Below, piece after piece: positions 2,415 to 48,160 of a stretch of 64,000 nt of DNA (the first letter of the stretch is position 1; the number at the start of each line of letters is the position of its first letter). The notes beneath the pieces are model-generated. The model saw only the letters and a list, made by a program, of their open reading frames with translations. It made no database searches and had not been told where the DNA came from. A program made the translations under genes and the position numbers. The stretch is taken from contig CAZTDN010000008.1 of NCBI GenBank assembly GCA_964611895.1, positions 13,328 to 77,327 of the forward strand. Reading direction: 5' to 3'. Source of the stretch: an uncultured Pseudobdellovibrionaceae bacterium. Its GTDB lineage: Bacteria > Bdellovibrionota > FAC87 > UBA2466.

Positions 2415-3404
2415 GTGAAGTCAAACCAACCCATCCGACACAAATCTCCTCGAGATAGCCTGTCATTAGCTCTGAAACTGGGCCTAGGGGCCCTGCTAAT
2501 CTTCTACGTGCTTCGGTCTCGGATGATTGATTTTAGCACGCTGGGCGGGATGCTTTTTTCACCAAGCAACCTGCTCATTGGCTTCGGGTTTTTGAGTTTT
2601 ATCACCCTTTGTTCGACCTGCCGGTGGTTTCTCCTATCCCGCGCACAAGGCCTTTCGCTGGATTTTTTTTCGATGTTTCAACTGACCATGATCGGGGTGT
2701 TTTTCAACACCTTCATGCCGGGTTCTGTAGGTGGAGACGTCATCAAAGCCTGGTACGTCGCGGGCCGAGAGCCAGACCGTAAAACCAAGGCCGTTTTTAC
2801 CGTTTTTATCGATCGTGCTATTGGGCTTTCGGTCTTCTTTTTTTATGCCGCCGTGACCTTGGTTTTTTATCATGGGTGGCTCGCCCATCATCCCCAGATG
2901 AAGTACCTTGCCTACGGAATATGGGCGTTTACGATCACAAGCGCACTGCTCATGAGCCTTTTTTTTGTGTCGGTCTCGTTCAAGCTTCCAGGCAGCGCGT
3001 GGATCAAGGCGCGCTTGCGCCAAGCGGGCGTGCTTTACCGAGTGTTTGAAGCCACGATCCTTTATCGCCACCACAGCAAAACTCTGGCTGCAGCGCTGGC
3101 CCTTTCGGCCGTTTCGATCTTTGGAAATACTTTGTTATTTAAACTACTGGGAGACACCTTGGGGATTCCGCTGACCTTACCCCAGTATTTCATCGTCGTT
3201 CCGATTGGCCTCACGGTTTCTGCCGCTCCTATTCTCCCCGGCGGCATTGGCGTAGGCCAGGTGGCCTTTTTTACCCTTTTTAAATGGGTGGGCTTGGAAA
3301 ACCCTCAGCAAGGGGCCACCCTCTACACTCTCATTCAGGTGTATACGATTTTGTTCAACTGCATGGGAGCCTTCTTCTACGTCCGGTTCCGACGCAAATG
3401 CTGA
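2415..3404 (+). CDS. Lysylphosphatidylglycerol-synthase-TM-like / UPF0104 flippase-like integral membrane protein
   Basis: 329 aa, about 8 predicted TM helices. Motif MPGSVGGDVIKAWY is typical of the LPG_synthase_TM (UPF0104) family that often accompanies glycosyltransferases. Confidence 0.6.
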   Translation: MKSNQPIRHKSPRDSLSLALKLGLGALLIFYVLRSRMIDFSTLGGMLFSPSNLLIGFGFLSFITLCSTCRWFLLSRAQGLSLDFFSMFQLTMIGVFFNTFMPGSVGGDVIKAWYVAGREPDRKTKAVFTVFIDRAIGLSVFFFYAAVTLVFYHGWLAHHPQMKYLAYGIWAFTITSALLMSLFFVSVSFKLPGSAWIKARLRQAGVLYRVFEATILYRHHSKTLAAALALSAVSIFGNTLLFKLLGDTLGIPLTLPQYFIVVPIGLTVSAAPILPGGIGVGQVAFFTLFKWVGLENPQQGATLYTLIQVYTILFNCMGAFFYVRFRRKC

Positions 3405-4126
3405 AATCTCGCGCAATCGTTTTGTCCCGAGAAAACTTTGGAGAAGCAGATCGATACATCCAGCTGTTTTCTCGAGACTGGGGACTCATCTCTGTTTTGG
3501 CCAAGTCCGCTCGAAAAAGTAAGCGCCGCTACGTGGGGGGCATGGACCTTTTCTGCCACAACGAAATCGTATTGCGCGGCGACCCTCGTGGAAAACCCTA
3601 CCTGGTTGAACTCACTGTTTTGAACTCTTTTACAGGGCTTAGAGAGGACCTCGATCGCCTGGTTGTGGCTGGAAAAGCCGCTCAGTGGGTGCGTCGCCTT
3701 TCCAATACGGCCGTGGCAATGCCCGGAGTCTACAGTTTGTTAGGACAGACTCTAGCTTTAATCGAAAAAACCGAAACGGAACGCTTGCCACTATTGCAGC
3801 TCATATTTCAAATCAAGTTTCTCGATCAGATCGGCCTCAAACCACGAATGGATGCTTGTGCTAAATGTTCCGAAGCGCTCGACAACGCAGCGGGTGTTTT
3901 TGATATCGATGCAGGAGGCCTTCTCTGTCGCCCTTGTCTGGGCGAAAGGACCGTCGCCCACTCCATGCGACTGGGAGAAGCAGAACAAGCATTGCTTGCC
4001 CAAGGTGAACGCCTCAAACTCACGCTATGGGATCAGTTTCAATTTCCGACCGATTCCACACGGAACCTTCTCCGACTCACCACCCAGTTTGCATCCTTTC
4101 ACACGCAGACACAGCTGCCGCATTAG
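3398..4126 (+). CDS. recO: DNA repair protein RecO
   Basis: MLKSRAIVLSRENFGEADRYIQLFSRDWGLISVLAKSARKSKRRY (RecO N-terminal OB fold) and a C-terminal Cys cluster CAKCSE...CRPC (zinc motif). ATG at 3398 overlaps the upstream stop (ATGCTGA). Confidence 0.8.
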   Translation: MLKSRAIVLSRENFGEADRYIQLFSRDWGLISVLAKSARKSKRRYVGGMDLFCHNEIVLRGDPRGKPYLVELTVLNSFTGLREDLDRLVVAGKAAQWVRRLSNTAVAMPGVYSLLGQTLALIEKTETERLPLLQLIFQIKFLDQIGLKPRMDACAKCSEALDNAAGVFDIDAGGLLCRPCLGERTVAHSMRLGEAEQALLAQGERLKLTLWDQFQFPTDSTRNLLRLTTQFASFHTQTQLPH

Positions 4127-5808
4127 TGATTTGGAAAAATCGCCGCTCTGCGCGCCTTGGCACCTGAGCTCACGTAGCGATAGTACGCCACGCCGATAAA
4201 CGCGATCTGCGCCAGAGCGTAGATCGACACATAGCCAGTGCCACCAGCGCCAAACCCATAAGAATGCAACCCTGCACCCAACACAAAATTGACTCCGTAC
4301 CAGGCCATCAAAACACCCAGAAACGACAACACGGCGGTTGCAGCAAAGCCGAACCCGCGCAACCACCCAGCAAAGCGCCCGTGGAGCACGGCCAAATAAA
4401 GCAACAAAGCTATCAGCGCCCAGACTTCCTTGGGGTCCCATCCCCAGAACCTACCCCAAGAATAATCTGCCCAGACACCCCCGAGGATTGTACCCGCTGC
4501 CAAAAGCACCACCCCGATTTGAATAGATCGGTACATGTACAAAGTTGCAAACTGAATGGACTCCGTTTTCTTTGGACGAAAGACGAACGTGCCCAACACC
4601 ACATTCCCCAAGCACAGCGATAGGGCAAACGCCGCATAGCTCAATGTAATGGTCAGCACGTGGATTGTGAGCCAGAAGTTGCTTCTCAATACTGGCTCCA
4701 GCGGCTGTATGCTGGGATCCAAAACCGAAGGCAGCGTGTCAGCTAAAACTAGGGCAACAATGGAAAACACCGATGCAGCAGCCGGAATCAAAGCCCGCCT
4801 GTAGGAAGCTCCAATAAAGAATGAGAAAAGCACGCAGCCCCAGCTCACCCAAATGACAGACTCGTACATATTGGTCACAGGCGGGCGCCCTGATATCAAC
4901 ATCCGCAAAACAAAACCAAGCGTGTGAATCGAAAAACCCAGAGCTAAAATGGCGGTTCCTACCCACTGCCAAAGTTTTACCGAAGTCACCAGGAATGCCG
5001 CCAACATTACAAACGCAATCAAATACGCCACCCATGCCCAACGAAACGGACGGAAGTGATTGTACAAGTATTCCCGTTTTAGCTCTGTAGCAGTGGGGTA
5101 CCCTTGTTGTACCAACCCGGTAGCCAACGCCCCCGCCAATTCCACACTCGCTTTGTTCCATTGCTCACCACTCTGTTTGGAGAATGCCTCCACCATCTGA
5201 GAGATGGGGCGTCGGACTGTTTCCACTGTAGCAGCGTTGTAGGGCAAAGGTTCCGCGGGATCATTAAGAGAGGCCAAAGACAACCAAGGGTCCTGAGTTC
5301 CGGTGGGCGGCGGGAGGACATTAAAAACCTGACCCGTGACCATCGCTTCGACCAAACCTAGCTGATTGTGAACATCGAGAAACTTCTTATCTAATGGCGA
5401 CAATCGATCACCCGATCGTTGTTTCTGCAAAGTCTCACGAATAGCGCTCTGCAGTTGAACGTTGTCCTTGAGTTCCTTGGGAGAAAAAAACTGCCTCCCC
5501 GCGTCTAAACCAGCCTTTTCTTTGAGTGGTCCATAGGCAACCCTCACAAAACGCTCGCTGGACCATTCAGTTTCGTAAGCCAACAACCAACCGAAAACGA
5601 CTTCGACCGCGGACAAACCGTTCCACTGGGTTTTGCCTGTGATAAATTGCACGCTTTCGATCGCGAAGGTATCCAACGGCTTGAGCCTGCCTCGGTCCTG
5701 AATAGCGTAAAGAGAGACGGCCTCCCAATCAAACCCCTCACGTGCCTTCGGGCCTGCTTCAGCGACCGTTCCCCATAAGAGAACTAAACTCATCAGTGTC
5801 TTCATCAA
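4123..5808 (-). CDS. ccsA: Cytochrome c biogenesis protein CcsA/ResC (System II haem handling, WWD domain)
   Basis: 561 aa polytopic membrane protein. Trp-rich WWD signature WADYSWGRFWGWDPKEVWAL; conserved His residues in flanking TM segments. Confidence 0.85.
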   Translation of the reverse strand: MMKTLMSLVLLWGTVAEAGPKAREGFDWEAVSLYAIQDRGRLKPLDTFAIESVQFITGKTQWNGLSAVEVVFGWLLAYETEWSSERFVRVAYGPLKEKAGLDAGRQFFSPKELKDNVQLQSAIRETLQKQRSGDRLSPLDKKFLDVHNQLGLVEAMVTGQVFNVLPPPTGTQDPWLSLASLNDPAEPLPYNAATVETVRRPISQMVEAFSKQSGEQWNKASVELAGALATGLVQQGYPTATELKREYLYNHFRPFRWAWVAYLIAFVMLAAFLVTSVKLWQWVGTAILALGFSIHTLGFVLRMLISGRPPVTNMYESVIWVSWGCVLFSFFIGASYRRALIPAAASVFSIVALVLADTLPSVLDPSIQPLEPVLRSNFWLTIHVLTITLSYAAFALSLCLGNVVLGTFVFRPKKTESIQFATLYMYRSIQIGVVLLAAGTILGGVWADYSWGRFWGWDPKEVWALIALLLYLAVLHGRFAGWLRGFGFAATAVLSFLGVLMAWYGVNFVLGAGLHSYGFGAGGTGYVSIYALAQIAFIGVAYYRYVSSGAKARRAAIFPNH

Positions 5809-7610
5809 CGTTTTCCTCCCACCAAGATGCTCCAGTAATGCGGGTTCATTAGGAACATCACCACAATCCCTAGCACCATGAGGATACTCCCCGCGTACTT
5901 AACCCAGCGGCCAGGATCGTAATTTACGCTGAAGACCGAGAGCGGTGGTTCACCTTCACGCATCTGATAACTCGCTTGATAGAATGTGTAACCTCCGTAT
6001 TTCAGTGGTTCATTCATGCTAATGTGGGCCTCCGGCTCCTTCGTGTTGCCTGGGTCTTTTACAATGACATCACTCTCGTAGGACGCCGCTTTGGTCGTAC
6101 CGGGATCCGTTTGCATGGTGAACTTCTTCAGGTGAATCTGAAACGGTAATTTCAGGCGGTCTTTTTCAAACCGCAAATCTAAGATACGATCTCCCATAGA
6201 GACACCTACCGAAGCGCCTTCCGGAAGCCACCAATCTTCGGGGGAGAGCGCCCCATTGGCGAGCTCTCTTTTTATATGTAAGGCCGAGCCAAAATTTTCC
6301 GCACCGACAATCTGATCCACGTACACAGGCAGGTCCTTCTGAATTGCGGCCGGCAACCACTTCTGCACCCGAAACTGCAGATCCATCCAACCTGTTGCTA
6401 CTGCTTTGCCAAGTTCCACTTTCCCCTGACTCAGTAGTTTTCCACCCTTTCCCTCGATGCGGTACAAGAGTTGTTGATCATTTTCGGCTTGAGCAAAGTG
6501 CAGCTTTCCGCGAAAACCGCCCGTGTCGTTGGGGGCTGGGGCGAACATTTTTAGGTCTACTCCAAAGGGCCTCACCGTCTCTTGTCCGGCGGTATGCTGC
6601 TTTGAAAACTCCGGAAAGCGAGAAAAAAGTGTGTGCCGCTCCTCTTGACCTTCGGCGTTCTTGAGCCGCAGCTGCACACAGGGGTTGACCAGCTCGGCGC
6701 TGCGGTTCACCAGACGATTGTTTTCTACAACTGCGTAGGTAAAATATTTTTCGATATAAACTGAGTACCCAGTGGACGCCACGGGCACCCAAGCGTTAAG
6801 TGCAGTGCGTATGTCTACTCTATAGGTTTTGCCAGCGATTTGAACTTGAACGTACCCCTTGCTCAAAGCGGGCGGAGGAACAAGTGCTTTCCCCGACTGA
6901 AAACTCGCCAAATCCCGCGCATTCCAGACCTTGCGAAACGTCAGCAAGGCAGGGCCGAGATTAACCTCGTTGGGAACGTCGATATTTTTCGCCAAGAGCC
7001 ACTCGCTGGTATCGAAACGGGAATTGAATAATTCCACCTGCAATGCTGGCACCCCAATGCCGGTAGAGGAAGGTTCTACTCCGCCTAGAACACGAGCTCG
7101 TGGAAAATATTCGTCTACAACGAGCTTTTCTCCTGTCGGCAGATCGACTTGGAGCAATCTCCCCTTTCGGGAACGTGCGGAATCGATTATTGGGAACGAT
7201 TGGCTCTTTCCAGCCTCCGCGTCCCCAAGAGTAAGCTGGTAATTGTTTAATACGACTTCGGAGTCTGATTGCCCCTCAACAACCGGCAAGTTTCCATCAA
7301 CGCCAAAACGCAGCGTCAAAAACGAGCCAAACAGAATCACTAAAATTCCCGCGTGGGTAACGACAAAGCCTGTCTGGTGTGGCTTCCACGGAAACCGGGA
7401 GAGCGCCGCGCAAAATACATTTACCGCTAATACGACGAGCAGAGCATAGAACCAAAGCCGCCCATAGACGAGTGCGTGCGCACCACGCATCCCATAGAGC
7501 GACTCCGCCACTGTGGCGACCGCAAGGACAATGGCCAAAGTCAGGATGGTGATCACCGCCAATTGCAAGGAAGAGAAAAATCGGAACAGTGGGTAGGATT
7601 TCCATTTCAT
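5805..7610 (-). CDS. ccsB: Cytochrome c biogenesis protein CcsB/ResB (Ccs1)
   Basis: 601 aa. N-terminal TM segments with KPHQTGFVVTHAGILVILFG (ResB signature), a large periplasmic domain and a C-terminal TM. 4-nt overlap with ccsA. Confidence 0.8.
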   Translation of the reverse strand: MKWKSYPLFRFFSSLQLAVITILTLAIVLAVATVAESLYGMRGAHALVYGRLWFYALLVVLAVNVFCAALSRFPWKPHQTGFVVTHAGILVILFGSFLTLRFGVDGNLPVVEGQSDSEVVLNNYQLTLGDAEAGKSQSFPIIDSARSRKGRLLQVDLPTGEKLVVDEYFPRARVLGGVEPSSTGIGVPALQVELFNSRFDTSEWLLAKNIDVPNEVNLGPALLTFRKVWNARDLASFQSGKALVPPPALSKGYVQVQIAGKTYRVDIRTALNAWVPVASTGYSVYIEKYFTYAVVENNRLVNRSAELVNPCVQLRLKNAEGQEERHTLFSRFPEFSKQHTAGQETVRPFGVDLKMFAPAPNDTGGFRGKLHFAQAENDQQLLYRIEGKGGKLLSQGKVELGKAVATGWMDLQFRVQKWLPAAIQKDLPVYVDQIVGAENFGSALHIKRELANGALSPEDWWLPEGASVGVSMGDRILDLRFEKDRLKLPFQIHLKKFTMQTDPGTTKAASYESDVIVKDPGNTKEPEAHISMNEPLKYGGYTFYQASYQMREGEPPLSVFSVNYDPGRWVKYAGSILMVLGIVVMFLMNPHYWSILVGGKR

Positions 7611-8449
7611 AAAAGTTCAATCTCCACTCCACCAGCTTGGAACTTAGTGTGGCCATCCCAAAAGTTCCTATAAACAAAAGCCAACCCCCGAGCAAATCGA
7701 TCCTTTTCTGGACTGGGGACGATCGATTGAAGCACTGCAGCTTTCTTACCCTCATGCACAAATTCAAGAGGAAGAACGCCCTGCAGGTACTCTCCGCGCA
7801 CTTCGACCGGAAACAGTTTTCGATTCACTTGTCCATAGGTAAAAATCCGTTCAACCACCTCTTGCCCTGGGTAGCAGCCCTTATTGCGATCTACGGCTTT
7901 TTCCAAACCGGCTTCCAGAACCATTACCGTGGAATCAATTTCGACCCCCACCCGTGCAAATCCCACAGACACCAGGTAGTAGTTTAACCACTGCTCGGTA
8001 AAATGCCCCTCTGGCGCGGGCACCTCCTGCATTGGCACGTGACACCACGAAACCGCTCGAGAAAACGGGTCATTCCACTCCAAGCCGGGCACTGAAACAA
8101 CCCCACTCCGTGCAAAAAGCCTCCAATCTGTAGAGACATCTTTGAACTCTAAATTCTCAGCAAAATGGTATCGCTCCAAATGCTCCAAAGCCGCTGCCGC
8201 GTTGCCCTGCGGGACGCAAAAATAAAACCCGTCAGAATGGGCTCGAAAAAAACCCAAAGCCACCACACCCGATCGTGCAGTCAAGAACGCCCCGAGACGG
8301 ACGGCGCTTGGATCCCAGTTTTTAAAGCTTAGGGTTGTCAGCCGATTGAGAAAATCCGCTGCGTCCGGCCCTTGAATAGAAAGCGTGGCCCAATCCAATC
8401 CCAATCGTCCAGCAGGAAGACTCAGCGCGCTTTCTTGCATGAGGGGCAC
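7607..8449 (-). CDS. YgfZ/GcvT-like folate-binding protein (Fe-S cluster repair/assembly factor family)
   Basis: 280 aa. KGCYPGQE motif characteristic of the YgfZ/aminomethyltransferase folate-binding fold. Overlaps ccsB by 4 nt. Confidence 0.65.
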   Translation of the reverse strand: MPLMQESALSLPAGRLGLDWATLSIQGPDAADFLNRLTTLSFKNWDPSAVRLGAFLTARSGVVALGFFRAHSDGFYFCVPQGNAAAALEHLERYHFAENLEFKDVSTDWRLFARSGVVSVPGLEWNDPFSRAVSWCHVPMQEVPAPEGHFTEQWLNYYLVSVGFARVGVEIDSTVMVLEAGLEKAVDRNKGCYPGQEVVERIFTYGQVNRKLFPVEVRGEYLQGVLPLEFVHEGKKAAVLQSIVPSPEKDRFARGLAFVYRNFWDGHTKFQAGGVEIELL

Positions 8450-8751
8450 TCACAGGTCTTGCGGAGCGAGTCGAAAGTATAAAAACCCGTGTCATGCCCA
8501 TCCGACCAAACAAATCGCAGGGCATACCGCCCTACAGATTCAATGCGCTTAGGTCTAATGTCTGCTGGAACCTTCTCGTCGTCCAAAATTTTTTCGCGCG
8601 TCCATTCATCCACGCAATGAGCGCATCGGCAATTCAGGCGCAAGCTGCGCACCCGATAAAAAGAACAGTGCCCATCGCTCCACACTATACCGAGATTGGA
8701 CGGGCTAAGCTGCTTGAGTTCAACGGGAACGACGTCTGCCATTATTGCCAC
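8422..8751 (-). CDS. DUF971 family protein (gamma-butyrobetaine hydroxylase-like N-terminal domain)
   Basis: 109 aa. Duplicated W-SDGH-S-Y ... LR..C.CA.C motif (VWSDGHCSFYRVRSLRLNCRCAHC; FVWSDGHDTGFYTFDSLRKTCECPSC). A classic neighbour of Mrp/ApbC. Confidence 0.6.
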   Translation of the reverse strand: MAIMADVVPVELKQLSPSNLGIVWSDGHCSFYRVRSLRLNCRCAHCVDEWTREKILDDEKVPADIRPKRIESVGRYALRFVWSDGHDTGFYTFDSLRKTCECPSCKKAR

Positions 8752-9536
8752 TCCAAGTTGAGCGATTGAAAATGATTTCCCGCGCCGACTTGTAAGCTAT
8801 CCAAGCGCGATACCACCTGATCGGCAATTTGGGAAAACTCCACAGCGGCAGGGGAGGATGGCTCGACCTGAATAATAGGCCGCCCCTTATCCCCACTCAC
8901 AACGATAGAAGACTGCAAAGGCACGGAGCCCAAAAAGGGAACTTGAAACTGGTCCGCCAAGACCCTCCCTCCGCCAGCGCCAAATACCTCTCCCGACATA
9001 TTTTCGACGACGCCTAAAATCGGCACTTTGACGTTCTGGAACATCATCAAACCTTTGCGAGCGTCAGCCAAACTCACTGCTTGGGGAGTTGTAACGATAA
9101 TGGCACCGGATAACGGCGCATTTTGGCTGATAGTCAGCTGCGCATCACCGGTTCCTGGGGGCATATCAATAAATAAATAGTCCAACTCTCCCCAATCTAC
9201 CTGGGTCAGAAACTGAGTCAGCGCTCCGTGTACCATGGGGCCTCGCCAAACCACCGGTTGATCGTCTGGGATCAAAAAACCCATCGACATGACCTTCACA
9301 CCGTCTTTGACCAGAGGAGTAACATGTGTCTCGGTAGCATCCGGTTTTTGATCTAACCCGACCATCAAAGGAAGGCTTGGCCCATAAATATCGGCGTCGA
9401 GAAGCCCGACTTTATGCCCAAGCTTAGCCAACGCAAACGCGAGGTTGGTGGTAACTGTGCTCTTGCCCACCCCGCCTTTGCCGCTGGCGACAGCAATTAA
9501 GTTGCGAACGGAGGGCATGGCGATTCGTTGTGACAT
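8742..9536 (-). CDS. mrp: Mrp/ApbC/NBP35-family iron-sulfur cluster carrier ATPase
   Basis: 264 aa. Deviant Walker A AVASGKGGVGKST, CxxC-containing ParA/MinD fold. Start may be the internal M (MPSVRN). Confidence 0.9.
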   Translation of the reverse strand: MSQRIAMPSVRNLIAVASGKGGVGKSTVTTNLAFALAKLGHKVGLLDADIYGPSLPLMVGLDQKPDATETHVTPLVKDGVKVMSMGFLIPDDQPVVWRGPMVHGALTQFLTQVDWGELDYLFIDMPPGTGDAQLTISQNAPLSGAIIVTTPQAVSLADARKGLMMFQNVKVPILGVVENMSGEVFGAGGGRVLADQFQVPFLGSVPLQSSIVVSGDKGRPIIQVEPSSPAAVEFSQIADQVVSRLDSLQVGAGNHFQSLNLEWQ

Positions 9537-9647
9537 AAGTACCTCAGTTAGAAAGTCCTACATTTCTAGCCCTAATGTAACCAAAAGGCAAAAAAAGCGC
9601 CGGAGAGTTCCCTTGCAAAGTCGAGTCAGCGCACGCTAAAAACACGC

Positions 9648-10892
9648 ATGGGTCCATCGACGAGAATGTCTCGGCCGCGCACGCCGCCTTGGAGCGACTG
9701 GGGGTATTACCTGCTCTGCCTCGAGGCTTTGACGGCCCTGGTTTTCGTTACCTTTCGCCCCACTGCTTGGCACTACGTCATATTCTCCGAGCCCGGGCCT
9801 TTTCTATGGAATGGGGGCAACCCTTACGGACACACTTTTTCCTATGGAACTACGGGTTATTTTTATTCACCCGCCTGCGCCATGCTTTTCTTCTCCTGGT
9901 TTGCGTGGATGCCCGAGCGCATTGGCCAATTTGTGTACTTGCTCGTCTCACTCAGCATTCTCTTCCTGGGCACCCGTGCGTTCTTGCAAGCATTGCTCAC
10001 GTCGCTGGGGTGGGATTTTTGGAAAAGTCGGTACCGAAACTGGGTTTGTCTCTTAGTGAGCTCTGAGTTGATCGGATCCATCCTAACCACCAAGCTGGAG
10101 CTGCTGATGGTTGGAGTCACGCTGTACGCGTTTTCTCTTTTGCTCACCGGGCGACGCCCACTGCTCGCGGGGTTGTGCATGGGTCTACTGCTCAACTGGA
10201 AATTTCAGCCACTTCCTATTATTGGCCTCGTTACTCTCGGCCTGGGCTTTATAAACCGGAAAACAGCGATCCGGTTTGCGCTGGGCGTAGTGGCAGTGGT
10301 CATATTGTTAATGCCGCTTCCTTTCCCGTTTCAGTCTTGGGATGCGACGATCAAAATTCACTCCGCATGGAAAGAGTCGCTTAGCGCGTTCATCGAGCGT
10401 GACTGGCTCGCATTTCATCATCTTTTCACTTTCTTGAACCACGGACTCGGAATTGAGGTTCCCTACCGAATCGCACAAGGGATCAGCGCCGGGGCTGGCC
10501 TTGCTCTCGCCGCGGGACTTGCAGTGTGGCTCCAAGGAGTCCCCAGAGCAGACAAAGCGCGTCTGCAGAAAATACTCCTGATTGCGCTGACAATGGGCTG
10601 CGGCTTTATTGTCTGCCTTTCGCCGCTGAGCCAGTCCAATGCTTATATCTGGTACGCGCCCATGGTGCTGGTTTTTGCTTGGGCCGCAGAACGAACCGGC
10701 GCGAGACCTGGTTGGGTAGGGCTGGTGTTGGGGATGACTTTTATCTTGGTGTCGATCCTCTATTCAGACCTTTGCCCCAGACCCTTGTACAAACTCGTCT
10801 TCGCCAAAGGCATCAAACCCGTGGGAGCGTTGTTTCTGCTTCTGTCGACGCTATCCTTACTAAAGAGATTACGTTCTAGCGACGTCGGTTGA
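9648..10892 (+). CDS. Polytopic membrane protein, DUF2029/GT-C (GT87-like) glycosyltransferase-like
   Basis: 414 aa with about 10 TM helices. Conserved loop GNPYGHTFSYGTTGYFYSPACAMLFF resembles the DUF2029 mannosyltransferase-like family. Start uncertain (9648 or 9666). Confidence 0.4.
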   Translation: MGPSTRMSRPRTPPWSDWGYYLLCLEALTALVFVTFRPTAWHYVIFSEPGPFLWNGGNPYGHTFSYGTTGYFYSPACAMLFFSWFAWMPERIGQFVYLLVSLSILFLGTRAFLQALLTSLGWDFWKSRYRNWVCLLVSSELIGSILTTKLELLMVGVTLYAFSLLLTGRRPLLAGLCMGLLLNWKFQPLPIIGLVTLGLGFINRKTAIRFALGVVAVVILLMPLPFPFQSWDATIKIHSAWKESLSAFIERDWLAFHHLFTFLNHGLGIEVPYRIAQGISAGAGLALAAGLAVWLQGVPRADKARLQKILLIALTMGCGFIVCLSPLSQSNAYIWYAPMVLVFAWAAERTGARPGWVGLVLGMTFILVSILYSDLCPRPLYKLVFAKGIKPVGALFLLLSTLSLLKRLRSSDVG

Positions 10893-41971: not shown

Positions 41972-42328
41972 ATGCCTTTGATTTTGAAAAAAGACATAGA
42001 CACTTCTTTACCGGAATGGAAAGCACGGCTTGGCGCCATTGTGCAGAAATGTGTCATGGCGGGTGCTGTTAATAGGATTTTCGTTTTCGGTTCTTTTGCA
42101 AGAGGTAAGATGACAGATGCATCAGACTTAGATGTCGCCGTCATACTGCCCGATTCTGAAAATGTCAGTGCCTTTCGAGACCGGCTGGCTCGTCCTCTTT
42201 CGGATTGGCCCTTGGATTTGCTTGTCGTCCATGAATCGCGTTATGAAGCACGAAAAGATTTTGGCGGTGTCCTATTCGAGGTAAAATCAGACGGCATTGA
42301 GATCTACCCAAACTGGTGCCTCAAATGA
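41972..42328 (+). CDS. Minimal nucleotidyltransferase (MNT) antitoxin-like protein
   Basis: 118 aa. GSFARGKMTDASDLDVAVIL = GS...D.D pol-beta NTase motif. 13-nt overlap with the downstream HEPN gene. Confidence 0.75.
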   Translation: MPLILKKDIDTSLPEWKARLGAIVQKCVMAGAVNRIFVFGSFARGKMTDASDLDVAVILPDSENVSAFRDRLARPLSDWPLDLLVVHESRYEARKDFGGVLFEVKSDGIEIYPNWCLK

Positions 42329-42738
42329 CCCCAAAAAAGCGAAAATTTGACAAAGAATACGCCGTTGAACTCTTGAAAATAGCTCAAGGCGATTTCGGAT
42401 CGGCCGTTGTGCTCAGTAAAAGCGAGGAAGGTAGAAAAGAAAATGTTCTTTTTTTGGGACAGCAATGTATTGAAAAATGCTTAAAAGCTGTGCTTTGCAG
42501 TTTGAATGAGCCAATCATTCACACGCATGATATCGAAGCGCTGCTTGCCTTGTTGCCAGACGATGTTGAACCACCATCTCCCTCTTCCCTAAAAACATTC
42601 ACTGAGTACGCAACGATCCGACGGTACGAAGAAGGGTACGAGGAACTAAACAAAAAAGATCTAAGAGACTCTTTAAAACTTGTCGAGTCCGTGCTTTCTT
42701 GGGCAAACACTGTTTGCAAGAAAAATCTGAAAAAGTAG
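42316..42738 (+). CDS. HEPN-domain toxin-like protein
   Basis: 140 aa, all-helical. Position and overlap with the MNT gene fit the HEPN/MNT operon architecture. An Rx4-6H-like motif is not obvious by eye. Confidence 0.6.
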   Translation: MPQMTPKKRKFDKEYAVELLKIAQGDFGSAVVLSKSEEGRKENVLFLGQQCIEKCLKAVLCSLNEPIIHTHDIEALLALLPDDVEPPSPSSLKTFTEYATIRRYEEGYEELNKKDLRDSLKLVESVLSWANTVCKKNLKK

Positions 42739-42765: not shown

Positions 42766-43383
42766 CTAAATCTTGCGTTGCAAGCCGACGACCTTTCCCT
42801 GGATCTGGAAGGCTTTATCGGTGACCGCAATGGGTTTCATTTTCTTGTTTTCCGGAACGAGGAAAACTCCCTGCGCCGTTTCCCGGTATCGTTTCACAGT
42901 GGTTTCGCCCCCTACCAAGGCAACAACAATGTCTCCGTTTCGCACGCGGGACCCAGTTTCCACTATCAAGTGGTCGCCCTCTAGGATCCCTGCTTCGATC
43001 ATGCTGTCTCCGACAACACGCAGGGCAAAACTAGGTTTTGCAGAAGTATCCTCTGAAACTAAAACAGACCCCAACTCAACTTGGGGCGTGTCCCTCAAGG
43101 GCCCTGCAGCGATTTCTCCGTAAATAGGAATCCGTTGAGTCCCCTGCGGTCGAAATCCCGCTGGAAAAAGCCCCCGCGCCTTGCGTCCGTTTTTGGCAGT
43201 TTTAGGATCGTCTAAGTAGCCCTTGCGGATCAGCGCTTTGACATACCCTTGAACTGTTCCCACGGCCTTAAAACCAAAGTGGTCTTGGATTTCACGGTAA
43301 GAGGGCGGCGCGCCATGAGTGGCACACGTGTCTTTAATAAAGTTCAAGACATCTTGTTGCGAACTCGTCAGCGGGCTTTTCAT
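42766..43383 (-). CDS. lexA: LexA repressor (S24 peptidase)
   Basis: Winged-helix N-terminus; Ala-Gly cleavage region; GDSM motif VVGDSMIEAGI; Lys in TTVKRY. Start taken at MKSPLTS (43383). Confidence 0.9.
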   Translation of the reverse strand: MKSPLTSSQQDVLNFIKDTCATHGAPPSYREIQDHFGFKAVGTVQGYVKALIRKGYLDDPKTAKNGRKARGLFPAGFRPQGTQRIPIYGEIAAGPLRDTPQVELGSVLVSEDTSAKPSFALRVVGDSMIEAGILEGDHLIVETGSRVRNGDIVVALVGGETTVKRYRETAQGVFLVPENKKMKPIAVTDKAFQIQGKVVGLQRKI

Positions 43384-43409
43384 TTTTTTCTTTTTCCCCC
43401 TACCAAAAA

Positions 43410-43425
43410 CATACAAATGTATGTA
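43410..43425. promoter_or_regulatory. Candidate LexA operator: 16-bp palindrome ACATACAAATGTATGT in the lexA / imuA divergent intergenic region
   Basis: Perfect 7-bp inverted arms (ACATACA / TGTATGT) with a 2-bp centre, sitting in the 52-bp gap between divergent lexA and the imuA-like gene. Confidence 0.45.
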
Positions 43426-43435
43426 TGTCATAAAA

Positions 43436-43894
43436 ATGGGCCTTTTGTCTAGTTCTACTTCTTCTTTAAACGCTCGGGGAGGGTTAACCCAGGTCCTCGC
43501 CCAACAAACCCTCGCTCCTGTTCAGGCCACCTTAAACAAAGCTTTAGAATCCTCTCACACTGACGAAGATTATTTTTTCTGGGCCTCAGACGAGGGCATC
43601 CTCTATCCCGAGGCCCTTTTATACCGCTGGAAAATCCCTCTCTCACGGTTCTTATTAGTACAAGCACGGGATGCCTCTGAAGTTTGGCGCCTGGGGTTAG
43701 AAGCCTCTCAAACAGGGCTATTTCGCCTTCTTTTCCTCAGAGCTTCTCGGCTCTGCCATCTCCCCCTATTGAGAAAACTCCAACTCTGCGCCGAGAAAAA
43801 CCAGTGTGATGTTTTTATCCTCACCCACACCCCCCTTCCCCATTGGACACTCAAAAAATGCGGACCCTTTATATCCAAAGCCCACACTCTTTAA
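43436..43894 (+). CDS. imuA: ImuA-like protein (short ImuA' type) of the imuA-imuB-dnaE2 mutagenesis cassette
   Basis: About 152 aa from ATG 43436. Call based mainly on synteny (divergent from lexA, followed by imuB and dnaE2). No Walker motifs, consistent with ImuA' variants. Confidence 0.5.
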   Translation: MGLLSSSTSSLNARGGLTQVLAQQTLAPVQATLNKALESSHTDEDYFFWASDEGILYPEALLYRWKIPLSRFLLVQARDASEVWRLGLEASQTGLFRLLFLRASRLCHLPLLRKLQLCAEKNQCDVFILTHTPLPHWTLKKCGPFISKAHTL

Positions 43895-45081
43895 GCGTTC
43901 TGGCGGAGAGCTGTTTTGCGCTCACCCCCAAAGTTACCTTGTGCGGTCTGCACCACCTGTACCTGGATATCCAGCCCACTTTGCGTGCTCTCGGAGGCGA
44001 AAACACAATCTGGTCTCACGCTGAGCATCTCACTGAGACTTTTGCCTCCTCGTATCAAATGATTCTTGTCGACAGGCCCGAGTGGGCACGCGCGCTGGTG
44101 CAAAAAACTCCAGAGCGTATTCCAACCGGAAAAAGCGCGGCCAGGCTCAAGCTCCTGCCTATTGAAAAACTTTTTTTCATCGGAGATCCACTCACTGAGA
44201 ACGCCGCAGAAAAAAAACGGCTCATCGTTTTTTTAAAAAAAGTCGGCATGCGGACCATTGGGGATTTTATCGCCATTCCAACAGCCTCGATCTTGCGGCG
44301 TTTTGGAAAAGAAGGGGAATCTCTCCACCTCTATGCCAAAGGGAACACCTCTCTTTGTTTGCCTTTATATGCCCCTCAAGATCTTATTGAGACATTTATA
44401 GATGCTGATGAGTTTTTCTCTTTAGATGCACTTTTGTTTAGTTTGCGACAAGCTCTTATCCGAATAGAAGCTCGCTTGCGAGGACGCGCCCTATCCGCGC
44501 GTTCTATTCAGCTCACTTTTCATCTAGAATCTCACCCGCCTATCGCCAAAACCCTACCACTCAACGAACCACTCCAAGAAGCTCAGGCGATATTGCGCAT
44601 CCTCAAGGAATTTCTGCAGAACCTTCACTGGGAGTCGCCCCTAGTGCGACTCCATCTCAAAATTATCGAAACAGCACCCCACACCCCTGGCCAGCTCTCC
44701 CTTTTGGATGATTTTGAAAACAAGTCTCACTCACTTGCGCATTATGTCGCAAGGCTCCGGGCCCGCTTAGGAGAAGATAGAGCGGGTTTTGCCCTTCTCC
44801 ACTCCAGCCACTTGCCCGAACAGTCTTTTTCTCTATCGTGGCCAGCACGCTCTGCCTGTGACCATCGAGACCCTTTCCCCGAACGCCCGCTTTTTCTGTT
44901 CTCTCCCCCACGGCCTTTTTCTCTTTCGCCACTGTGGAAACTAGAGCCCACTGAGTCTCTTTTTACTCAGTGGTGGGAATCAGGAGGGACCAGAGAATAT
45001 TTCACTGCCCGAAAGGAAAGTGAATGCCTGTGGGTTTACCGTACCCCAAGTGGAGAATGGTTTGCTCATGGCGTTTTCTAG
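43858..45081 (+). CDS. imuB: ImuB: Y-family DNA-polymerase-like protein (catalytically inactive paralogue)
   Basis: About 407 aa, between the imuA-like gene and dnaE2. Y-family palm/fingers-like N-terminal region; overlaps both neighbours. Confidence 0.7.
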   Translation: MRTLYIQSPHSLSVLAESCFALTPKVTLCGLHHLYLDIQPTLRALGGENTIWSHAEHLTETFASSYQMILVDRPEWARALVQKTPERIPTGKSAARLKLLPIEKLFFIGDPLTENAAEKKRLIVFLKKVGMRTIGDFIAIPTASILRRFGKEGESLHLYAKGNTSLCLPLYAPQDLIETFIDADEFFSLDALLFSLRQALIRIEARLRGRALSARSIQLTFHLESHPPIAKTLPLNEPLQEAQAILRILKEFLQNLHWESPLVRLHLKIIETAPHTPGQLSLLDDFENKSHSLAHYVARLRARLGEDRAGFALLHSSHLPEQSFSLSWPARSACDHRDPFPERPLFLFSPPRPFSLSPLWKLEPTESLFTQWWESGGTREYFTARKESECLWVYRTPSGEWFAHGVF

Positions 45082-48000
45082 ACCCTTTGCTGAACTTGCC
45101 GCCAAGAGTAATTACTCTTTCCTAGAAGGTGCCTCTCACCCAGAAGAACTCGTCACTCAGGCCAAAGCACTGGGCTACAGAGCGCTTGCTGTGGTGGACC
45201 GCTTGGGTGTGTATGGAAGCCCTCGATGCCATATCGCCGCAAAAGCGCAAAGGCTCCATTTCATCGTCGGAGCAGAAGTCCCTGTCGAGGGAATGCGGGC
45301 GCTGCTGCTCGCCAAAAACCGCAACGGCTACGGCAACCTATGTGAACTGCTTACCACTGCGCACTCTGACCGAGACAACCCCACTGCCCCGCTCGAAACC
45401 CTATTGTCTTTTTCAAAGGACTTGTACCTGTTGCTTCCCGCATGGAAACTCCCCACCGAAAAAGTCCCTCTGCTTCAAGAGGCTTTTGGGAAGAATCTAT
45501 CTCTTCTTGTTAGTCTAGCTCTGGATGGTTGCGACAAAGCCCGCCTTTCGGCCGCCAAGCAAGCCTCAAAGCAATTCCAACTCTCCTGCACCGCGAGCAA
45601 CGAGCCGCTTTTTCACGAACCACAACGTAAACCCTTGCAAGATGTTCTCACCTGCATCCGCCATGGTTGCACTTTAACTCAGGGAGGAACTCGACTACTG
45701 CCCAATGCGCACCGTTGTTTAAAGTCACCCGAGCAAATGTATGCGCTCTTTTCTCAACACCCGGAGTGGGTACAGCACTCAGTGGAAATCGCCTCTCAAT
45801 GCGCTTTTTCTCTCGACGAGATCCGGTACCGATACCCAACAGAATGGATCCCGAGCAACCACACCGGGGACTCGTACTTGGCAGAACTCGCGTGGGAGGG
45901 AGTCAAGAAACAGTATGGCCACAATCCTTCAAAAAAAGTACAAGAACTCCTAAAGCAAGAGCTCTCGCTGATCCAAGAGCTGGAGTACAGCGATTATTTT
46001 CTCACGATTTGGGACATAGTCTGTTTTGCGCGATCTCAGGGGATCTTGTGTCAAGGGCGCGGCTCGGCGGCCAATTCTTTGGTTTGTTATGTATTAGGAA
46101 TCACGTCGATTGACCCGGCTCACTTGGATCTTTTGTTTGAACGTTTTATTTCTCGTGAAAGGCGAGAACCTCCTGATATTGACATCGACTTTGAACACGA
46201 ACGCCGCGAAGAAATCATTCAGTACATTTATCAACGGTATGGCAGACACCGCGCTGCGATCACCGCAGAAGTGATTTGCTTTAGAAAACGATCTGCGTTG
46301 CGAGAGGTCGCCAAGGTTTTTGAAATATCGATTGCCACAGTGGAATCTCTCCAGACGTTAACGCACCGTCGATCTTTGGATGAAATCGATTTGAAGGCTC
46401 TGCAATCAACGGCCACGTCTGTTCCCTCTGAAAAAATGGCTTTGTACTTTTCGATGGTCCGAGCCATCCGGTCTTTTCCCAGACATTTGGGCACCCATGT
46501 GGGTGGGTTTGTTCTGTGCCAAGATGCTCTGTCACGCAATGTCCCCATTGAAAAAGCCGCGATGGAAAACCGGACTATTGTCCAATGGGATAAGAACGAC
46601 CTCGATGCGTTGGGCTTTGTGCGGGTGGATATCTTAGGTTTGGGAATTCTTACTGCTATTCGAAAAGCGTTTGATCTTATCCAACAGAGCCGTGGTGTTT
46701 CTTGGACACTTGCGTCTTTGCCCAGGGAGGATCCTGCTGTTTATGACTCTGTTTGTGCGGCTGATACTGTGGGTGTTTTTCAGATTGAGTCGCGTGCGCA
46801 GATGAACATGCTCCCACGGCTTCGCCCTCGTTGTTTTTATGATTTGGTGATTGAGATTTCTCTGGTTCGACCAGGACCGATACAGGGCGACATGGTGCAC
46901 CCGTACTTAAAGCGACGCAATGGAGAGGAGCGTATTGAGTACGCACACCCGGAGCTAGAGGCCATCTTAAAAAAAACCTGTGGGGTTCCTTTGTTTCAGG
47001 AACAGATCATGAAAATAGCCATGACAGTCGCAGGTTTTACCGGGGGCCAGGCTGACGAGCTGCGACGCGCGATGGGATCGTGGCGACGCGACGGGCACAA
47101 TCGACTGAGCAGCTTGGGAGATAGGTTTCGTCAGGGGCTTATCGATCGGGGAATCTCTGTCGACTATGCGCAACGTGTTTTTCAACAGATTGAGGGGTTT
47201 GCCGAGTATGGGTTTCCGGAGTCTCATGCGGCTTCGTTTGCAGTACTCGTCTATGCCACGGCTTACCTGAAGCACTATTATCCCGATGCGTTTCTTGCGG
47301 CTTTGCTCAACTCTCAGCCCATGGGGTTTTACAGTCCACACAGTCTTTTGCACGATGGAATGCGGCACGGGGTTAAAGTGGATGGCATTTCAATTCAAGA
47401 ATCTTTTTGGGACAACACGATTCCAAGCCCCATGCATTTGCGTTTGGGGTTTCGACAAATCCGTGGCTTCCGCAAGCAAGTCGCATTTGCCATTGAGTCT
47501 GCACGCGCGAGTGGGTTTGGCTCTTTTGAAGACTGTATTGAGAAAACAGCCCAGGCTTTGCGCCCCACTGCCCTCACAAAGCGAGATCTATTTGGCCTCG
47601 CAGGGGCCGGAGCTTTTGAGTGCCTGGGAATTTCTCGCAGGCAAAGCCTGTGGGAGATCCAGAAAATGGCTTTGGCGGATAGCTTTGCTTTTCAAGCCAC
47701 CGAAGTACCTTTTGAGCTCCCAGTCGAAGAGGATTGGGAGCGGATTTCCTCGGACTATGAAGCACAGGGGGTGTGCTTGCATACGCACCCGGTTTCTTAT
47801 TTTAGAGAGGAGCTGAGTGGTCAGGGGGTAGTGTCTTCGGACAGGTTGAAGAACTGCGTAGAAAACCAGCGCATTCAAGTGGCTGGGTTAGTGATTTGCC
47901 GGCAGCAACCGCCAACAGCATCGGGAGTGCTTTTTATCACGCTCGAAGATGAGGGAGGCTTTATCAATCTGGTGATTTGGAAAAAGGTCTTTGAGCAGTA

Positions 48001-48160
48001 CCGCGAGGCGCTTCTGACTCAGTCTTTTTTGGTTTGTGGGGGGCGCATTCAGCGTGCTCAGGGGACGCAGGTGACGCATGTTTTGGTAGATAAAGTAGCC
48101 CCTCTTCTGGCTGTATACAACGAGCCTTGGGCCGGGCCGATTTCTTATGATTTTCATTAA
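45068..48160 (+). CDS. dnaE2: Error-prone DNA polymerase DnaE2 (ImuC)
   Basis: N-terminal PHP domain FAELAAKSNYSFLEGASHPEEL; Pol III alpha core with catalytic GVFQIESRAQMNM... region; OB fold at the C-terminus. About 1030 aa. Confidence 0.9.
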   Translation: MAFSRPFAELAAKSNYSFLEGASHPEELVTQAKALGYRALAVVDRLGVYGSPRCHIAAKAQRLHFIVGAEVPVEGMRALLLAKNRNGYGNLCELLTTAHSDRDNPTAPLETLLSFSKDLYLLLPAWKLPTEKVPLLQEAFGKNLSLLVSLALDGCDKARLSAAKQASKQFQLSCTASNEPLFHEPQRKPLQDVLTCIRHGCTLTQGGTRLLPNAHRCLKSPEQMYALFSQHPEWVQHSVEIASQCAFSLDEIRYRYPTEWIPSNHTGDSYLAELAWEGVKKQYGHNPSKKVQELLKQELSLIQELEYSDYFLTIWDIVCFARSQGILCQGRGSAANSLVCYVLGITSIDPAHLDLLFERFISRERREPPDIDIDFEHERREEIIQYIYQRYGRHRAAITAEVICFRKRSALREVAKVFEISIATVESLQTLTHRRSLDEIDLKALQSTATSVPSEKMALYFSMVRAIRSFPRHLGTHVGGFVLCQDALSRNVPIEKAAMENRTIVQWDKNDLDALGFVRVDILGLGILTAIRKAFDLIQQSRGVSWTLASLPREDPAVYDSVCAADTVGVFQIESRAQMNMLPRLRPRCFYDLVIEISLVRPGPIQGDMVHPYLKRRNGEERIEYAHPELEAILKKTCGVPLFQEQIMKIAMTVAGFTGGQADELRRAMGSWRRDGHNRLSSLGDRFRQGLIDRGISVDYAQRVFQQIEGFAEYGFPESHAASFAVLVYATAYLKHYYPDAFLAALLNSQPMGFYSPHSLLHDGMRHGVKVDGISIQESFWDNTIPSPMHLRLGFRQIRGFRKQVAFAIESARASGFGSFEDCIEKTAQALRPTALTKRDLFGLAGAGAFECLGISRRQSLWEIQKMALADSFAFQATEVPFELPVEEDWERISSDYEAQGVCLHTHPVSYFREELSGQGVVSSDRLKNCVENQRIQVAGLVICRQQPPTASGVLFITLEDEGGFINLVIWKKVFEQYREALLTQSFLVCGGRIQRAQGTQVTHVLVDKVAPLLAVYNEPWAGPISYDFH

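Follow-up and report, generated by a model that had tools for sequence, protein, structure and literature searches.

Which DNA sequence does LexA recognize in uncultured Bdellovibrionota, and can a single copy of it govern both the repressor gene and the mutagenesis genes next to it? The question is raised by a locus of an uncultured Pseudobdellovibrionaceae bacterium, located in a stretch of 64,000 nucleotides (assembly GCA_964611895.1, contig CAZTDN010000008.1, positions 13,328 to 77,327 of the forward strand), which we call the window. At this locus lexA, on the minus strand, diverges from three overlapping plus-strand genes, imuA', imuB and dnaE2, which form a mutagenesis ('mutasome') cassette, and between the two units lies a 16-bp palindrome. 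Comparison with related loci leads us to consider it very probable that this palindrome is a LexA binding site controlling both lexA and imuA'-imuB-dnaE2.

The palindrome has perfect 7-bp arms, ACATACA and TGTATGT, around a 2-bp centre, and can be written accurately as ACA-N2-TGT, as TAC-N4-GTA or as ACAT-N8-ATGT. An initial annotation of the sequence had described a divergent promoter region of 52 bp with only one strong palindrome in it, and both points hold: 52 bp separate the ATG of lexA (43383) from that of imuA' (43436), and between 43350 and 43470 no other palindrome has perfect arms of at least 7 bp. The coordinates given at the time (43410-43425) were one base too far to the right, the palindrome being at 43409-43424. 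Taken alone, it is weak evidence and statistically unremarkable, as the window contains 31 palindromes with 7-bp arms and spacers of 0 to 4 bp, compared with 19.7 in shuffled sequences. What places it far above chance is that it is conserved in relatives at the same promoter.

Relatives were collected in two ways. A scan with a LexA alignment, using one genome per species, gave 13 close loci, with LexAs 49 to 81% identical to that of the window, and a metagenome scan with an ImuB alignment gave nine loci. The 13 close loci are labelled Bdellovibrionota, Pseudobdellovibrionaceae or Bdellovibrionales, or bear older names; the NCBI taxonomy places the genus Bdellovibrio within Pseudobdellovibrionaceae. 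All the relatives found are metagenome-assembled, and none comes from a cultured strain. Homologous dyads were found at the same place in the loci numbered L002-L014 and L082-L097. Upstream of lexA, the core dyad ATACA-NN-TGTAT is present in 12 of the 13 close loci, the thirteenth (L012) having a 17-bp variant, and this core occurs nowhere else in the 13 loci or in the window. The nearest relatives have ACATACA..TGTATGT or close variants of it, and the more distant ones CCATACA..TGTATGG. In a more general form, xxxTAC-N4-GTAxxx, a 6+6 dyad lies at the lexA/imuA' promoter of the window and of 22 related loci, amounting to 26 sites, two of which (L003 and L005) deviate from it at one or two arm positions. 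Another three loci have the N5 version of the L012 subfamily, which brings the related loci with a dyad at this promoter to 25. No perfect site was found elsewhere in the roughly 370 kb scanned. In an alignment anchored on the box, there is little or no variation at positions 4-7 and 10-13, and the flanks have diverged. A motif matrix made of the window site and 13 homologous sites gives every other position of the window less than 9 bits, and the window site itself 25.5 bits, a score that is circular for this site. The palindrome had been suggested as a possible SOS box of the lineage, and it is indeed the best candidate.

The divergent order of lexA and imuA'-imuB-dnaE2 is found in 11 of the 13 close loci and in eight of the nine further metagenome loci. 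Two loci in which the units have come apart bear on whether one site can serve both. In L004, a 3.3-kb insertion (6657-9986) parts lexA from the cassette, and two boxes are present, one by lexA and the other at the start of imuA'. In L083, lexA and the cassette lie about 0.7 to 1.1 kb apart (3496-4181), each with one box. In both cases the operator was duplicated together with flanking promoter sequence. Moreover, L010 has a lexA without a cassette within 10 kb, and has kept the box. Since the split units of L004 and L083 each keep a box, the shared site of the window would serve both units, as the initial annotation had supposed, and together with L010 these two loci are the best available evidence supporting a need for the site on both sides.

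A few loci contain more than one box between lexA and imuA'. L082 has a tandem pair, CTATACTTTTGTATAG and CTATACTGATGTATAG (2077-2115), spaced 23 bp start to start. Two 17-bp CTGTAC-N5-GTACAG sites are found in L012 (5910-5965), L094 (2910-2965) and L096 (1763-1815), which form the L012 subfamily. The box of this subfamily, CTGT-N9-ACAG, is one base wider than in the rest of the family, and the two sites have a further TGTAC half-site between them.

Besides being conserved, the box changes in an ordered manner. Its arms vary symmetrically (ACAT/ATGT, CCAT/ATGG, CTAT/ATAG, CCGT/ACGG and CTGT/ACAG), as would be expected for the site of a dimeric protein, and the bases vary together with the recognition helix of LexA, in a family of LexAs 49 to 83% identical to that of the window. 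Helix positions were numbered by a gap-free alignment to E. coli LexA, in which the E. coli index is the window index minus one. The E. coli helix (residues 38-46, R-S-P-N-A-A-E-E-H) goes with the outer bases CTGT, which S39, N41, A42 and E45 are reported to read (PMC11442139). The helix of the window LexA is K-A-V-G42-T-V-Q-G46-Y47, and its clade, K-A-V-G-T-V-Q-G-Y, has ACAT. The majority of loci have K-A-V-G-T-V-Q-D-H and CCAT. L082, with K-S-I-K-A-V-Q-D-H and hence Lys at the position of E. coli N41, has CTAT in both of its tandem boxes; L093, with R-T-V-A-T-V-Y-E-H, has CCGT; and L090, L091 and L092, with K-S-(V/I)-N-S-V-Q-T-H, have CTGT. The helix of the L012 subfamily is K-S-V-N-A-(A/V)-Q-(E/D)-T. 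The positions that vary align with S39, N41, A42, E45 and H46 of E. coli, and Asn at the equivalent of N41 pairs with CTGT, as it does in E. coli LexA. L091, L092 and L093 were chosen for their unusual residue at the N41 position before their DNA was examined. From the helix alone, CTGT was predicted for two LexAs of the Asn type, P0094 and P0107, and both loci had CTGTAC-N4-GTACAG.

These pairings suggest, tentatively, a natural LexA recognition code. Under this proposal, which we hold to be somewhat less likely than not, the outer four bases of a box in the E. coli frame would have switched several times (CTGT, CCGT, CTAT, CCAT, ACAT), one subfamily gaining 1 bp of spacing, and each switch would be matched by helix substitutions at the equivalents of S39, N41, A42, E45 and H46. 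The family would then include CTGT-N8-ACAG boxes with a GTAC-N4-GTAC core outside Beta- and Gammaproteobacteria.

The position of the box with respect to the promoters was deduced from the relatives. Their putative imuA' promoter consists of TTGAYY, a 17-bp spacer that includes the core of the box, and TATG(G/T)(T/A); their putative lexA promoter consists of T(A/G)GACA, 17 bp, and TATAC(C/A), the last of which extends into the box on its left arm. In most of the 26 sites the T(A/G)GACA hexamer keeps its distance to the box, give or take one or two bases, including L010 and the lexA side of L004, where the opposite imuA' is absent. The ATG retained for imuA' in the window is 10 nt downstream of the putative -10, and L002-L005 likewise have an ATG 9 to 10 nt past the conserved TATG(T/G) hexamer. 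NCBI places the start of imuA' at 43421 instead, within the right arm of the box; we rejected this in-box ATG, as it would fall inside the putative -10, and as close relatives share the ATG 9 to 10 nt downstream. Many relatives start lexA at an ATG within the box arm TGTATGG, and their proteins begin with M-V-N or M-Q. The in-box ATG on the minus strand was rejected as the lexA start of the window (43384-43424), because its reading frame is not that of lexA and meets a stop codon in the A-rich run GGGGGAAAAAGAAAAAAATG; the gene starts at 43383 instead. This shift could be due to a changed frame where homopolymers abound, or could simply reflect a different start. The positions of the imuA' and lexA starts may point to mRNAs with little or no leader.

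Regulation of lexA and of imuA-imuB-dnaE2 by LexA is found again and again at the core of SOS regulons (PMC4951493), and established LexA biology suggests how the site would function. A LexA dimer would sit on the 16-bp ACAT-N8-ATGT dyad with a winged-helix domain at either half. As the dyad would overlap the -10 regions of two back-to-back promoters lying within about 50 bp, the bound repressor would exclude RNA polymerase from both. After DNA damage, RecA on single-stranded DNA would stimulate self-cleavage of LexA at Ala93-Gly94, via Ser127/Lys164. The operator would then empty, the mutasome and fresh LexA would be made together, and the new LexA would close the system again. The conserved dyad and the co-variation with the helix support operator binding and RecA-stimulated cleavage only indirectly.

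Several points weigh against reading the palindrome as a LexA operator. The case is comparative throughout. The dyad is the only site of its motif within the 64-kb window, and the genes recA, uvrA, uvrB, ruvB, recN, ssb and dinB were found neither in the window nor in the related loci, in a search that combined Pfam on 30 further open reading frames of the window with a scan of all fetched loci for signature motifs. The -35 position of imuA' in the window is a poor CCCCTA, a scan of 43250-43600 for consensus sigma-70 promoters and terminators found nothing, and the overlap of the box with both promoters in the window is deduced from the relatives. The LexA motif published for B. bacteriovorus has a different spacing. 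Finally, in a rough neighbour-joining tree of the LexAs, which carries no support values, the ACAT type is one derived clade inside the CCAT type, and the CTGT(N9) and CCGT types are basal; the types of box and of helix both follow the clades, and part of their co-variation could come from shared ancestry. As to the missing SOS genes, a regulon confined to lexA and the cassette has a precedent in the family: the title of a 2005 article by Campoy, as cited in PMC4951493, places canonical SOS genes of B. bacteriovorus outside LexA control, so that an absence of the motif at recA, uvrA and ssb would not be decisive.

Three other explanations of the palindrome are considered: promoter architecture or another regulator, a hairpin, and chance. 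In the first, divergent and overlapping -10 or extended -10 elements (TATAC/GTATA) would by themselves form the dyad, or the dyad would be the site of some other regulator, for example of the XRE type, like M. xanthus DdiA. Indeed, the arms coincide with the putative -10 hexamers of both promoters, and LexA-independent damage-response regulators are described in related groups (PMC12288472). However, promoter hexamers are not expected to change symmetrically in both arms, nor to track the base-contacting positions of the LexA helix, and the co-occurrence of CTGT with Asn at the N41 position is the very pairing of E. coli. Furthermore, no other regulator gene is conserved beside the site, the neighbours outside the cassette varying between loci. 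We therefore hold this explanation to be unlikely.

A hairpin in RNA or single-stranded DNA, such as a 5' leader structure affecting translation or stability of the lexA or imuA' mRNA, seems less likely still. Compensatory changes in both arms would also fit a conserved stem, and the minus-strand RNA around the box has a folding energy of -8.1 kcal/mol (z = -2.9). The stem is short and AU-rich, however, and the plus-strand RNA reaches only -6.1 kcal/mol (z = -1.5), a value equalled by 19 of 200 shuffles. In addition, the TAC...GTA core is invariant in sequence and not merely paired, no G-U intermediates are seen, and the putative promoters would start transcription inside or beyond the box, so that neither mRNA would have the whole stem. 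Nor does a stem offer any reason for the co-variation with the LexA helix. Lastly, the idea that the palindrome arose by chance in AT-rich intergenic DNA is effectively refuted, for although palindromes with 7-bp arms are common in the window (31 for about 20 expected), 25 related loci with diverged flanks have the same dyad in this position, and it occurs nowhere else in about 370 kb.

If the palindrome is a LexA operator, how does it relate to the boxes already known? The consensus of the E. coli SOS box, the type known from Beta- and Gammaproteobacteria, is CTGTATATATATACAG. The initial annotation had called the palindrome unlike CTGT-N8-ACAG, which is true of the specificity bases and not of the architecture. 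The two boxes share the 16-bp dyad frame xxxT-N8-Axxx, with an AT-rich centre and 12 bp from the middle of one outer tetranucleotide to that of the other, and this frame, in which 8 bp separate the outer tetranucleotides, is the same in the 26 homologous sites. Positions 4-5 (TA), 7 (A), 10 (T) and 12-13 (TA) are common to the window box and the E. coli consensus, and the two LexAs have the same domain layout and self-cleavage residues. In contrast, the specificity bases of the window are ACAT/ATGT and not CTGT/ACAG, C and G stand at positions 6 and 11 (TAC...GTA) where E. coli has T and A, and the matrix of this family gives the E. coli consensus -5.8 bits. In the helix, Gly42 replaces Asn41, Gly46 replaces Glu45 and Tyr47 replaces His46. 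CTGT boxes are confined, among the relatives, to L090-L092 and the L012 subfamily; the sister LexAs of L090, L091 and L092, which are 53 to 59% identical to that of the window and have Asn at the N41 position, go with literal CTGT-N8-ACAG boxes.

The Cheo-like core ACA-N4-TGT that had been ascribed to the palindrome is not literally there. The Cheo box of Gram-positive bacteria (GAAC-N4-GTTC) and the window box do have in common the N4 spacing and the inner bases AC...GT, that is, AC-N4-GT. The half-sites differ, being ATAC/GTAT here with no GAAC/GTTC, and the conserved region extends three bases further outward on each side, these bases being the ones that track the helix. The cyanobacterial LexA motif is RGTAC-N3-DGTWCB; written as GTAC-N4-GT(A/T)C, it is one base per half away from ATAC-N4-GTAT, three bases of four being shared, and the boxes of L090-L093 contain GTAC-N4-GTAC exactly.

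Closer in taxonomy is B. bacteriovorus, of the same NCBI family Pseudobdellovibrionaceae, in which Campoy et al. reportedly described, in 2005, LexA control of lexA and of a mutagenesis operon. Its motif, TTAC-N3-GTAA (PMC8565304, PMC3323433), is the only experimentally defined one in the family. Both boxes have the half-site xTAC...GTAx. They differ in spacing (N4 here, not N3), in half-site (ATAC, not TTAC) and in conserved length (16 bp versus 11 bp), and the N4 spacing of the ATAC/GTAT type departs from TTAC-N3-GTAA in the window and in the 22 related loci alike. The published N3 motif could be another one-base shift in spacing, comparable to the N5 of the L012 subfamily. No named Bdellovibrio LexA was among the matches to the LexA of the window or to that of L012.

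The cassette too can be compared with known ones. According to PMC4951493 and PMC3901139, imuA-imuB-dnaE2 cassettes of Proteobacteria and Verrucomicrobia, and imuA'-imuB/dnaE2 of M. tuberculosis, have the same gene order; like the present one, they encode a RecA/SulA-like protein, an ImuB with a clamp motif and without a detectable catalytic core, and DnaE2. Physical linkage to lexA, with a LexA-type box at the promoter, is likewise known (PMC4951493). Two differences are seen. The set lexA-imuA-imuB-dnaE2 of O. terrae is co-directional (PMC4951493), whereas here lexA is divergent with a single shared operator, and the first gene of the present cassette is far below the NCBIfam cut-off for ImuA.

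The features of the locus are collected in Table 1.

Table 1. Genes, predicted operator and putative promoter elements of the locus, in window positions
Feature	Position	Strand	Product	Basis or remark
lexA	42766-43383	minus	205 aa	Pfam PF01726 LexA_DNA_bind and PF00717 Peptidase_S24; TIGR00498
Predicted LexA operator	43409-43424			16-bp dyad ACATACAAATGTATGT (ACATACA-AA-TGTATGT)
Putative imuA' -10	43420-43425	plus		TATGTA; made by right arm of box
Putative lexA -10	43423-43428	minus		ACATAC; overlaps right end of box
imuA'-like	43436-43894	plus	152 aa	Predicted fold and gene position; no Pfam match
Putative lexA -35	43446-43451	minus		TAGACA; inside first imuA' codons
imuB	43858-45081	plus	407 aa	PF11799 IMS_C only; also 407 aa at NCBI
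dnaE2 (imuC)	45068-48160	plus	1030 aa	NF004225 error-prone DNA polymerase; also 1030 aa at NCBI

That the locus is a lexA-linked mutasome cassette of ImuA-like protein, ImuB and DnaE2 had been proposed from the letters alone, and is borne out by domain scans and curated models. By domains and residues, the lexA product is a canonical self-cleaving LexA. It has an N-terminal winged-helix DNA-binding domain (PF01726, E = 4.1e-15) and a C-terminal S24 self-cleaving domain (PF00717, E = 1e-26), and reaches 162.6 bits on the LexA repressor model TIGR00498, above its cut-off of 110.95. The cleavage site Ala93-Gly94 and the catalytic pair Ser127/Lys164 are invariant across 33 homologues, and align with A84-G85, S119 and K156 of E. 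coli LexA (PMC11442139).

The first gene of the cassette is called ImuA'-like from its predicted fold and its position, not from sequence membership. Its product matches no Pfam family, and scores 21.6 bits (E = 1.6e-4) on the ImuA model NF033429, whose equivalog cut-off is 150. The initial annotation had it as short and Walker-less; indeed no Walker A motif (G-x4-G-K-[ST]) was found in its 152 residues. An AlphaFold2 model (mean predicted local distance difference test score 73.7, predicted template modelling score 0.70) has as its top Foldseek matches P. aeruginosa SulA (1oft, E = 2.4e-5) and RecA cores, and a RecA/SulA-type fold is what ImuA and ImuA' are likened to in the literature (PMC3901139). 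A small protein with this predicted fold, encoded directly upstream of imuB and overlapping it, would be an ImuA', and this gene order is kept in at least 20 loci. A profile search with the product against the sequences of solved structures gave no match, and a word-indexed search gave seven homologues.

The first 37 nt of imuB coincide with the last part of imuA'. Pfam detects the IMS_C little-finger domain in ImuB and not the IMS catalytic domain, and the matches to Pol IV models are weak; loss of the catalytic Asp/Glu residues was judged by eye. A motif of the beta-clamp type, QLSLL, is located at residue 279, and Q-L-x-L is invariant in 11 orthologues. A Y-family-like protein with a little finger and a clamp motif, lacking the signature of the catalytic core, corresponds by sequence to what would be expected of ImuB. 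In turn, dnaE2 shares its first 14 nt with the last part of imuB. Its product, an error-prone polymerase III alpha-type protein, scores 1249.7 bits on NF004225 (cut-off 939) and 643 bits on the DnaE model NF004226 (cut-off 1002), which identifies it as DnaE2, and contains the Pfam domains PHP, DNA_pol3_alpha, finger, HHH_6 and OB.

On the other side, the stretch 41972-42738 (plus strand) holds a nucleotidyltransferase gene of the NTP_transf_2/Polbeta type and a HEPN-domain gene, which overlap each other and adjoin lexA at its 3' end. MNT-HEPN toxin-antitoxin pairs usually have this layout, and it is not kept beside lexA in the relatives examined. The insert of L004 contains about six unannotated open reading frames, among them a small gene pair resembling a toxin-antitoxin system.

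The same bacterium is represented in another assembly, GCA_013565695.1, by overlapping contigs (JACCDT011107710.1 and JACCDT011457357.1), and NCBI records an identical 205-aa LexA product for this assembly. Its contigs are numbered beyond 1.4 million, and it may be a very large assembly of a host or a community that carries this Bdellovibrionota genome as a passenger. Exact-protein matches at the window ends gave access to about 14 kb of flanking DNA (about 4 kb on the left and 10 kb on the right), which contains no dyad site and no canonical SOS gene. Some 3.6 kb past the left window end (L098, 14325-14340), CCATACAATTGTAGCA is found 28 bp upstream of a glycerophosphodiester phosphodiesterase (GDPD) gene; of its half-sites one is good and the other degenerate, and its score of 11 bits, the best level of shuffled sequences, is probably due to chance. 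Within the window, the only recombination or repair gene seen outside the cassette is that of RecO (3284-4126, plus strand, from precomputed Pfam hits), which has no box upstream. Just past the right window end (L099, 2000-9300) is a contractile-injection-system cluster; it encodes a phage-type sheath, two tube proteins resembling T4 gp19, CIS_tube and a gp25-like baseplate protein, with an AAA ATPase next to them.

What, then, does the locus add? A LexA-controlled mutasome linked to lexA is an ordinary, textbook design, and the general understanding of the SOS response is unchanged. The operator variant and the series of boxes and helices are new; no description of the variant turned up in the literature that could be searched, where neither LexA motifs of Bdellovibrionota or Bdellovibrionales nor a GTAC-N4-GTAC motif gave any relevant result. 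The new item is thus the operator sequence of an uncultured Bdellovibrionota clade, unlike the only motif published for the family, and the motif matrix may be used to predict the damage regulon in these relatives of predatory bacteria. If the link between box and helix is causal, the recognition code would be testable by single-residue swaps, Gly42 to Asn being predicted to shift the specificity from ACAT toward CTGT. The graded series might then represent a living intermediate between the Gram-positive or cyanobacterial motif and that of E. coli, in the long-discussed evolution of LexA sites.

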